DNA of 15,371 nt from a virus. Taxonomy: Duplodnaviria > Heunggongvirae > Uroviricota > Caudoviricetes. The DNA lies in IMG/VR virus record IMGVR_UViG_2579778778_000003; one strand, given 5' to 3'. The notes under the pieces were generated by a model. The model saw only the letters and a program-made list of their open reading frames with translations, ran no database searches and was not told the origin of the DNA. Made by a program: the position numbers and the translations under genes. The stretch's first letter is position 1. Each line of letters begins with the position of its first letter. Positions 9,686 to 10,872 of this stretch are shown here, piece by piece.

Positions 9686-9888
9686 CGCGACAGGAAGAAC
9701 TTGCCGCTGCCCGTGCGGCACTGCATGACCTGATGACAGGTAAACGGGTGGCAACGGTACAAAAAGACGGACGGCGAGTGGAGTTTACGGCCACTTCCTT
9801 GTCTGACCTGAAAAAATACATTGCGGAGCTGGAAGTGCAGACCGGCATGACACAGCGACGCAGGGGACCTGCAGGATTTTATGTATGA
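9682..9888 (+). CDS. W: head-tail joining protein W
   Basis: 68 aa, matches lambda gpW; overlaps the A stop and B start. Confidence 0.9.
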
Positions 9889-10244
9889 AAACGCCCACCA
9901 TTCCCACCCTTCTGGGGCCGGACGGCATGATATCGCTGCGTGAATATGCCGGTTATCACGGCGGTGGCAGCGGATTTGGTGGGCAGTTACGGGCGTGGAA
10001 CCCACCGAGTGAAAGTGTGGATGCAGCCCTGCTGCCCAACTTTACCAGTGGCAATGCCCGTGCAGACGATCTGGTACGCAATAACGGCTATGCCGCCAAC
10101 GCCATCCAGCTGCATCAGGATCATATCGTCGGGTCTTTTTTCCGGCTCAGTCATCGCCCAAGCTGGCGCTATCTGGGCATCGGGGAGGAAGAAGTGCGAC
10201 CAACAGCACATCTGAAACGCTTGCAGCGACACCAAAGGCAGTAA
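9885..10244 (+). pseudogene. B: portal protein B, truncated: only ~103 N-terminal codons are lambda-like, then the frame runs into foreign sequence
   Basis: [15 protein letters not shown]...SWRYLGIGEEE matches the lambda portal N-terminus; after ~10193 the translation (VRPTAHLKRLQRHQRQ*) is unrelated and terminates. The lambda portal is ~533 aa. Confidence 0.85.
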
Positions 10245-10338
10245 AAACAGCCTATGACAATGCCGAGAAACGTCTGCAGAAAGATCAGAACGGTGCGGAT
10301 ATCCCTGGCAAAGACACCTTTACGAAAAATATTGGTGC
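10196..10338 (+). pseudogene. internal side-tail-fibre (stf) fragment with no start codon
   Basis: Frame 2 translation [41 protein letters not shown]... contains the tail-fibre motif SATNSTSETLAATPKAVK; open from a stop at 10082-10084 with no initiation codon. Confidence 0.5.
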
Positions 10339-10872
10339 CTGGCCGGAACTAATGAATTTATTGGTGAAGGTGATGCATATATTCCGCCTCATACAGGTCT
10401 GCCAGCAAACAGTACCGATATTGCACCACCAGATATTCCTGCTGGCTTTGTGGCTGTTTTCAACAGTGATGAGGCATCGTGGCATCTCGTTGAAGATCAT
10501 CGGGGTAAAACGGTTTATGACGTGGCTTCCGGCGACGCGTTATTTATTTCTGAACTCGGCTCATTACCGGAAAATGTCACCTGGTTATCCCCGGAAGGGG
10601 AGTTTCAGAAGTGGAACGGCACAGCTTGGGTGAAGGATACGGAAGCAGAAAAACTGTTCCGGATCCGTGAGGCGGAAGAAACAAAAAACAGCCTGATGCA
10701 GGTAGCCAGTGAGCATATAGCGCCGCTTCAGGATGCTGTGGATCTGGAGATCGCAACGGAGGAAGAAACCTTGTTGCTGGAAGCCTGGAAAAAGTATCGG
10801 GTGTTGCTGAACCGTGTTGATACATCAACTGCACCTGATATTGAGTGGCCTACGAACCCTGTCAGGGAGTAA
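10339..10872 (+). pseudogene. tfaD: tail fibre assembly protein Tfa, 5'-truncated (first ~14 codons replaced)
   Basis: Translation from ~10339 ([54 protein letters not shown]...EWPTNPVRE) matches lambda Tfa from residue ~15 onward; no in-frame start upstream; only an internal GTG at 10450. Confidence 0.75.

Follow-up and report, generated by a model that had tools for sequence, protein, structure and literature searches.

The 15,371-nt stretch of DNA analyzed here (IMG/VR record IMGVR_UViG_2579778778_000003, referred to below as the window) is a DLP12-type lambdoid cryptic prophage of Escherichia coli, at the tRNA/intD to ompT/cus locus. Between positions 9885 and 10872 it carries an ordinary decay scar of a defective lambda-like prophage whose head and tail genes have been deleted. 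The 5′ part of a portal gene of the lambda B type is joined at about codon 103 to an internal fragment of the side-tail-fibre gene stf, which is joined in turn to a copy of the tail fibre assembly gene tfa that lacks its 5′ end. An earlier interpretation made from the letters alone (the sequence-only reading) had proposed this order of pieces, and it is confirmed by homology searches and base-level alignment. We slightly favor, at a probability of about 0.5, an origin of both joints in one compound event, by two forward jumps or by the joining of three fragments, with a 144–149 bp island of stf left between them.

Two joints and three gene fragments

The breakpoints were placed against three references: lambda; the inducible phage PhiR26_1 (PV340555), which has a full DLP12-like layout from integrase to ompT that includes B through J, lom, a 1025-aa Stf, a 194-aa Tfa, ybcY and a tfaX fragment; and an apparently complete prophage of E.coli A16 (NZ_CP028758, locus L012), which lies between fimZ–tRNA–intD and ompT–envY, the same locus as the window prophage. 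Three blocks were mapped by BLAST and the joints were then aligned base by base. The left arm runs into the portal gene (window 7051–10194 corresponds to lambda 1–3145, and window 1510–10194 to A16 16270–24957), the stf block covers window 10190–10345 (A16 42960–43114), and the tfa arm covers window 10339–12935 (A16 44537–47133). Homology to the portal genes of lambda and lambdoid phages, at 97.9–99.1% identity over >3 kb, ends at window 10194, which is lambda nt 3145, the same position in lambda B. Homology to stf spans 10189/10190–10345 (E = 1e-65 or better), and homology to tfa begins at 10339, which is lambda nt 22024.

At joint 1 (10193–10194) the dinucleotide AG is common to both parents, so that the sequence is certainly portal to 10192 and certainly stf from 10195. 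The parental sequences read …GAAGAAG|CCCG in the portal gene and …CAGCAG|TGCG in stf (in longer context, …GGAGGAAGAAG|CCCG and …CAGCTCAGCAG|TGCGACC), and AGAAG and AGCAG match at four of five positions over 10190–10194. The 31-mer across this joint is GGGGAGGAAGAAGTGCGACCAACAGCACATC. At joint 2 (10339–10341) the parents share CTG, with certain stf to 10338 and certain tfa from 10342; here the stf parent reads …GGTGCCTG|CCGTG and the tfa parent …AATCTGCTG|GCCGG (in longer context, …ATTGGTGCCTG|CCGTG and …AATCTGCTG|GCCGGAAC), and the corresponding 31-mer is AATATTGGTGCCTGGCCGGAACTAATGAATT. Every base is accounted for at both joints and nothing has been inserted. The base-by-base alignment revealed no imperfect homology around the breakpoints longer than AGnAG and CTG. 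Two random joints would share at least 2 nt at one and 3 nt or more at the other with a probability of ∼0.008. The sequence-only reading had placed the first joint at ∼10193, which holds to the base (10193/10194), and the second near 10330–10340, which is refined to 10339–10341; its call for a search for microhomology is answered by the AG and CTG just described. The scar thus has the properties of microhomology-mediated deletion, with flanks that are colinear and co-oriented with an intact relative, no insertion, and shared sequence within the 1–9 nt range.

Relative to A16, 18,007 bp are missing at joint 1 and 1,428 bp at joint 2, for a total of 19,435 bp; relative to PhiR26_1, the losses are 18,058 and 1,428 bp (19,486 bp), and in lambda coordinates about 18.7 kb. 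These values bear out the earlier estimate that roughly 19 kb had been removed, and the colinear intact relatives agree that the missing genes begin with the remainder of B and extend through most of stf. The smaller loss at joint 2 comprises the 3′ 1.38 kb of stf and codons 1–17 of tfa.

The portal remnant (9885–10194, + strand) consists of codons 1–103 and the first base of codon 104, and its 309 nt of intact codons are identical to the A16 portal gene (309/309). Its ATG overlaps the stop codon of W in the sequence ATGA at 9885–9888. The remnant matches the portal family PF05136 (4e-17) at profile positions 2–70 of 354, and it is a pseudogene, annotated as such by the RefSeq annotation pipeline (Prokaryotic Genome Annotation Pipeline, PGAP) with the remark ‘missing C-terminus’. 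A full-length portal protein would have ∼533 residues and cover the whole profile; only residues 1–103 are present, and neither re-evaluation of the reading frames nor homology searching found a second portal sequence in any frame or elsewhere in the window. The claim of a truncated portal gene therefore survives the check that the sequence-only reading had set for it. After about codon 103 the open reading frame (ORF) diverges from gpB and ends at a stop codon at 10242–10244. The result is a chimeric 119-aa ORF (9885–10244, +) of 103 portal residues followed by 16 out-of-frame residues from the stf island (VRPTAHLKRLQRHQRQ).

The stf island (10193–10341, +) is 144 bp long when only unambiguous bases are counted (10195–10338) and 149 bp with both microhomologies. 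It encodes Stf residues 473–521 of 979 in A16 numbering, or 519–567 of 1025 in PhiR26_1, with 100% amino-acid identity. Read in the stf frame it begins SATNSTSETLAATPKAVK and ends KNIGA, contains no start codon, and matches a single tail-fibre repeat (PF03406, 8e-15). A complete Stf would have an attachment domain, a shaft, a receptor-binding domain and a start codon, whereas only 49 codons of a fragment are left here; PGAP annotates it as a pseudogene, ‘phage tail protein’, ‘missing N-terminus and C-terminus’. The frame that holds the island is open from 10085 to 10633 (+), as the sequence-only reading had observed when it counted ∼180 codons and no start. Our count is 182 codons, and no ATG, GTG or TTG precedes the ATG at 10352. 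The same ORF (P0001) has been called in E.coli MS 78-1. It is a by-product of the joints and not a gene.

The tfa remnant (10339–10872, +) retains codons 18–194 and the stop codon (10870–10872), having lost its ATG and 17 N-terminal residues. The earlier claim of a 5′ truncation is correct, although the first retained residue is 18 of 194 by alignment rather than ∼15. A complete 194-aa Tfa with its own start is thus absent, codons 1–17 being deleted, while the Caudo_TAP domain is complete (PF02413, 5e-45, positions 1–130 of 131). The first canonical in-frame start is a GTG at 10450, and we saw no Shine–Dalgarno sequence by eye ahead of either 10339 or 10450. RefSeq/PGAP calls the truncated gene an intact 177-aa ‘tail fiber assembly protein’ (WP_044059726.1) that starts from a CTG at 10339; this CTG is the deletion joint itself.

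The portal, stf and tfa pieces are each read in a different frame, and consequently the downstream remnants are not translated from the portal start. We also considered whether the joints had created a structured RNA or a promoter and rejected the idea: there is no sigma-70-like promoter in 9600–11100, and the only Rfam match, IS009 (RF02111; 10631–10829, +, 221.6 bits), lies wholly inside the tfa coding sequence. The match probably reflects a family built on this conserved coding region and not a small RNA. All three pieces are already annotated by RefSeq as partial genes, and the scar is of a well-known kind.

Origin of the double joint

The A16 prophage and PhiR26_1 serve as progenitor models. 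Both are colinear with the window to the left and right of the scar, match it exactly or almost exactly at the breakpoints, and hold 19.4–19.5 kb that the window lacks, from a full portal gene through a full stf, together with a 194-aa Tfa. A16 is 99.06% identical to the window in the left arm and 99.92% in the right arm; the tfa arm differs at only two positions (2595/2597 identical). An A16-like intact prophage has thus lost two colinear blocks. The first, of 18.0 kb, ran from portal codon 104 to stf codon ∼472 and contained the remainder of B, C/Nu3, D, E, FI, FII, Z, U, V, G, T, H, M, L, K, I, J, lom and the 5′ half of stf; the second, of 1.43 kb, ran from stf codon ∼522 to tfa codon 17.

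RecA-independent illegitimate recombination in E.coli, which includes short-homology-dependent deletion and alternative end joining, and serial switching of the fork stalling and template switching/microhomology-mediated break-induced replication (FoSTeS/MMBIR) type make joints at 1–9 nt of microhomology without recombinase sites, and compound joints that include short stretches of retained or templated sequence are a signature of such mechanisms. The window joints share with these systems the short microhomology and the lack of recombinase sites. They are probably products of RecA-independent illegitimate recombination, either by microhomology-assisted end joining of broken DNA or by template switching during replication or repair. 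A jump of 18 kb on 2 nt is easier to reconcile with alternative end joining or template switching than with simple slippage.

The double joint is rare and has been found only as a unit. The 1.3-kb joint region is 100% identical in 12 of the 5,426 complete E.coli genomes, and the same 12 carry the whole window. Their sources were humans, pigs, a chicken, a giant panda and wastewater, and different projects and laboratories determined them. Exact junction patterns for both joints were present in each of three IMG/VR contigs and one metagenome contig. The exact 119-aa chimeric ORF is listed in 875 blocks of a public assembly collection; 24 of these blocks were read, and the 25 further contigs obtained, from six places, all carry both joints contiguously.

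Neither joint was found without the other in the 5,426 complete genomes or at any of 10 extra loci. No one-joint intermediate was recovered by junction-specific megablast of the complete genomes, by exact-pattern scans of metagenomes (joint 2 pattern only) and IMG/VR (both joints), or by exact look-up of the 119-aa joint 1 ORF (24/875 blocks read). A genome with joint 2 only would be expected to encode an stf fusion of ∼660 aa; none was found among 5.8 billion protein clusters, where the longest protein with the out-of-frame tfa tail has 188 aa. Yet the double-joint allele is old enough to have diversified in its right-hand context: another carrier (L023) has ybcH in place of the neighboring segment, which makes the double joint older than that difference, and two more (L010 and L021) depart from the window at the very end of tfa. 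We estimate that an island of at most 149 bp would arise from two independent random endpoints in only ∼1–9% of cases, depending on the order of events. Small islands are also found elsewhere, with 159 bp retained in allele L015 and 261 bp in L007.

The strongest competitor, to which we give somewhat less than an even chance, is that two successive and independent simple deletions took place in the same lineage, in either order and each mediated by microhomology. For example, the 1.43-kb stf–tfa deletion could have come first and an 18-kb deletion could then have ended 144–149 bp upstream of that joint; lambda does not need its side tail fibres. Among spontaneous rearrangements simple deletions are the most frequent class, the sister prophages hold many independent deletions and often several per allele, and each joint taken alone looks like an ordinary microhomology joint. 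What this account must explain is the lack of a single-joint intermediate in any collection searched and the placement of the second endpoint within about 150 bp of the first joint, improbable at the level given above if endpoints are random.

Several considerations weigh against a single compound event. Two sequential deletions explain the sequence equally well. The missing intermediates are negative evidence from a rare lineage (12/5,426 genomes; 24/875 blocks read), and the small islands of other alleles could simply be what a series of small deletions leaves behind in dead DNA. The 2-nt and 3-nt microhomologies are each compatible with chance on their own (P = 0.16 and 0.05), and as to enzymology the sequence does not tell end joining, template switching and gyrase-mediated exchange apart. 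The single compound event nevertheless remains the account that we slightly prefer.

An origin of the island as foreign filler, copied from the stf of another resident prophage or acquired by recombination with another prophage, is very improbable. The island does encode a widely shared repeat (PF03406), and related sequence is present in 790 of the 5,426 genomes, often in other prophages. However, it matches A16 stf at all 149 positions (0/149 mismatches), A16 is also the nearest relative of both flanks, and most other stf alleles are at most 96.8% identical. The retained pieces also keep the order and orientation that they have in the intact prophage, with the island lying between portal and tfa. 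Because all three pieces are nearest to A16 and stand in native order and orientation, the island is what remains of this prophage's own stf and not captured foreign DNA.

We consider it less probable still that a site-specific recombinase or mobile element made the joints, through a Pin/Gin-type invertase or an adjacent deletion mediated by an insertion sequence (IS). Tail-fibre genes are classic invertase targets, and in related Qin-type prophages pinQ adjoins tfaQ. Against this, the annotation shows no pin gene or IS in or adjoining this prophage segment, and neither joint has an IS element, a target duplication, a recombinase site or an inserted base. The hallmarks of a Din-family system, an adjacent invertase gene and a ∼26-bp site with an AAACC-NN-GGTTT core, were not found, and no crossover core of the AAACCNNGGTTT type is present at either joint. 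Matches to the core with one mismatch occur at 9282 and 10968, no more than expected by chance; the latter, a hix-like sequence at 10968–10979 inside ybcY, was judged to be such a chance occurrence. Finally, collapse of a complete prophage by an assembly or sequencing artefact, a concern that the sequence-only reading had itself raised, is excluded by joints that are base-identical in independent assemblies, namely the 12 complete genomes of unrelated projects, the three IMG/VR contigs, the metagenome contig and the 25 further contigs.

Other deletion alleles at DLP12-type and Qin-type prophages

The DLP12 prophage of K-12 (nohD–aaaD′–tfaD′–ybcY′–tfaX) occupies the same locus as the window prophage, has the same gene order, and has also lost its morphogenesis block. 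The two share quuD, the porin gene (nmpC), essD–rrrD–rzpD, bor, ybcV, ybcW, ylcI and nohD, followed after the loss by tfa, ybcY and tfaX. The sequence-only reading had asked whether the same joint, in the aaaD/tfaD region of K-12, is ancestral; this is not the case. In K-12, terminase A codon ∼103 is joined to a point in tfa equivalent to about window 10432, with a 3-nt microhomology (TAT), so that most of A has been lost together with the whole of W, the portal stub and the stf island, all of which the window retains. K-12 accordingly matches window 2176–8067 and then 10434–11851, at 97.2–97.8% identity, whereas the window lacks the aaaD′–tfaD′ joint and has intact A (641 aa) and W. The two are different deletion alleles of the same family. 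K-12 DLP12 was rejected as the source of the ancestral joint: its breakpoints differ, the K-12 deletion extends across both joints of the window, and the K-12 copy has diverged further. Because K-12 is 97.2–97.8% identical to the window and intact A16 is 99.06–99.92% identical, the two deletions are independent, and because A16 is nearer than K-12, the window scar arose in an A16-like lineage that had already separated from that of K-12.

Several sister alleles (MSHS 472/OHT76-1, LR-64-1, S1, EC09, LZYWN_4, 2018-10-1CC, ETEC1706 and Z226-5) have likewise lost the head–tail block that lies between terminase or portal on one side and stf or tfa on the other, and some keep small islands between two joints. 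The breakpoints of every one differ from those of the window. In MSHS 472 and OHT76-1, A codon ∼519 is joined to tfa with GATA shared. In LR-64-1, portal codon ∼50 leads into the 261-bp stf island noted above (L007:5432–5692) and then into the stf 3′ end, and the 159-bp island of ETEC1706 (L015:2492–2650) lies between two deletions inside terminase A. In Qin-type and other lambdoid prophages, portal or terminase sequence is joined to stf or tfa at yet other points. Nine other joints in the sister alleles have mostly 2–5 nt microhomologies. Loss of the head–tail block is thus recurrent and independent across DLP12-type and Qin-type alleles.

Some of these breakpoints coincide. Four other alleles break the portal gene within about 2 nt of one site at portal nt ∼632 (GACGGCTAT|CCTGG / GAGGACGGCTAT|CCTGG), at L005:5917, L015:3917, L016:3918 and L017:3919, equivalent to A16 L012:25279–25281. 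Three of these are Qin-type prophages at ydfJ and one adjoins hyaA/tRNA-Ser, and their right-hand partners differ (stf 42763, the stf end at 44334, tfa 44609 and tfa 44803). Such recurrence points either to a hotspot of breakage or to an old joint that was eroded repeatedly on one side. In tfa, two copies of GATATT at window 10412–10435 (CCGATATTGCACCACCAGATATTCC) are the right-hand breakpoints of several independent alleles: MSHS 472/OHT76-1, strain S1, a lysozyme::tfa fusion (P0047) and K-12 DLP12. A gpG::tfa fusion (P0004) has its tfa breakpoint at the CTGG of joint 2 (codon 18; window 10339–10342). The allele sample was ascertained with tfa-derived queries, and the coincidence of tfa breakpoints may be due to chance; we regard these cases as suggestive and make no claim of a deletion hotspot in the 5′ part of tfa.

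A stronger proposal would be that the double joint was made by serial template switching or three-fragment end joining, and that loss of the block uses preferred breakpoints rather than following random decay. The shared portal site, the recurring tfa motifs and the repeated islands of ∼150–260 bp would together point to site-preferring breakage or switching that disarms prophages. We consider this proposal unlikely.

Prophage context and consequences of the deletion

The window is 99.99% identical to AMSCJX02 across all 15,371 bases and ∼100% identical to 11 further complete genomes. Its placement at the tRNA(argU)/intD locus is supported by the AMSCJX02 annotation, in which intD lies upstream, by colinearity with K-12 DLP12 at 97.8%, and by the order of the late region: quuD, porin, essD–rrrD–rzpD, bor, ybcV, ybcW, ylcI, cos, nohD/Nu1, terminase A and W. 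The cos site (7051–7062, +; GGGCGGCGACCT) is an exact copy of the lambda cohesive-end 12-mer, with window 7051 equivalent to lambda nt 1. The nohD/Nu1 gene (7240–7785, +), terminase A (7760–9685, +; 641 aa) and W (9682–9888, +), whose stop codon overlaps the portal ATG, are intact and were spared by the deletion. The A protein differs from lambda gpA at one of 641 residues, with 36 synonymous codon differences. The whole cos–Nu1–A–W packaging module (7051–9888) looks untouched in a prophage without capsid genes. The absence of visible decay in Nu1–A–W fits a recent deletion, and selection is not required.

The window also contains other boundaries. At its left end (window 1–1527), DLP12-type phage homology starts at ∼1431–1510, inside a DUF968 gene fragment, and upstream of this point are CPS-53/KpLE1-like yfdP–yfdT genes; it is another mosaic or deletion boundary. 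Further upstream, the intD of AMSCJX02 has an internal stop. A third joint is present at 12935, where an alpha/beta-hydrolase gene has been cut short; relative to A16 and MSHS 472, ompT and envY are absent. Window 12922–12994 resembles the envY–ybcH spacer and is followed, onward to 13800, by a DcrB-related/VgrG (type VI secretion system) segment; this is the segment whose place is taken by ybcH in L023. In L010 and L021, homology to the window ends at 10867, within the last tfa codons, which suggests an insertion or rearrangement at 10867/10868. A tfaX-like fragment (11745–11957, +) duplicates part of the tfa 3′ end, and window 11756–11876 is 89–90% identical to the tfa of K-12 (tfaD) and PhiR26_1 and 85% identical to lambda tfa. 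Because the fragment is present in intact PhiR26_1 and A16, it predates the decay of the window prophage.

The deletion leaves a prophage without head and tail structural genes from the portal C-terminus through most of stf, and because those genes are lost it cannot make particles. If the late operon were transcribed, it would encode nu1–A–W, then the 119-aa portal stub from the W-coupled start, then untranslatable stf and tfa remnants. Nothing suggests that the scar itself has a function.

In a review of 638 strains, DLP12 was the most prevalent locus of this kind, present in 74% (PMC6379469). The window is one more allele of this commonest E.coli cryptic-prophage locus and is of small importance in itself; the only curiosity is the recurrence of breakpoints and short retained islands among its sister alleles. 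Its value is as a clean and datable example of prophage disarmament, with a near-identical progenitor model in A16 and breakpoints resolved to 2–3 nt. Together with its sister alleles, it could contribute to a systematic survey of how E.coli deletes phage morphogenesis genes, and at which sites.

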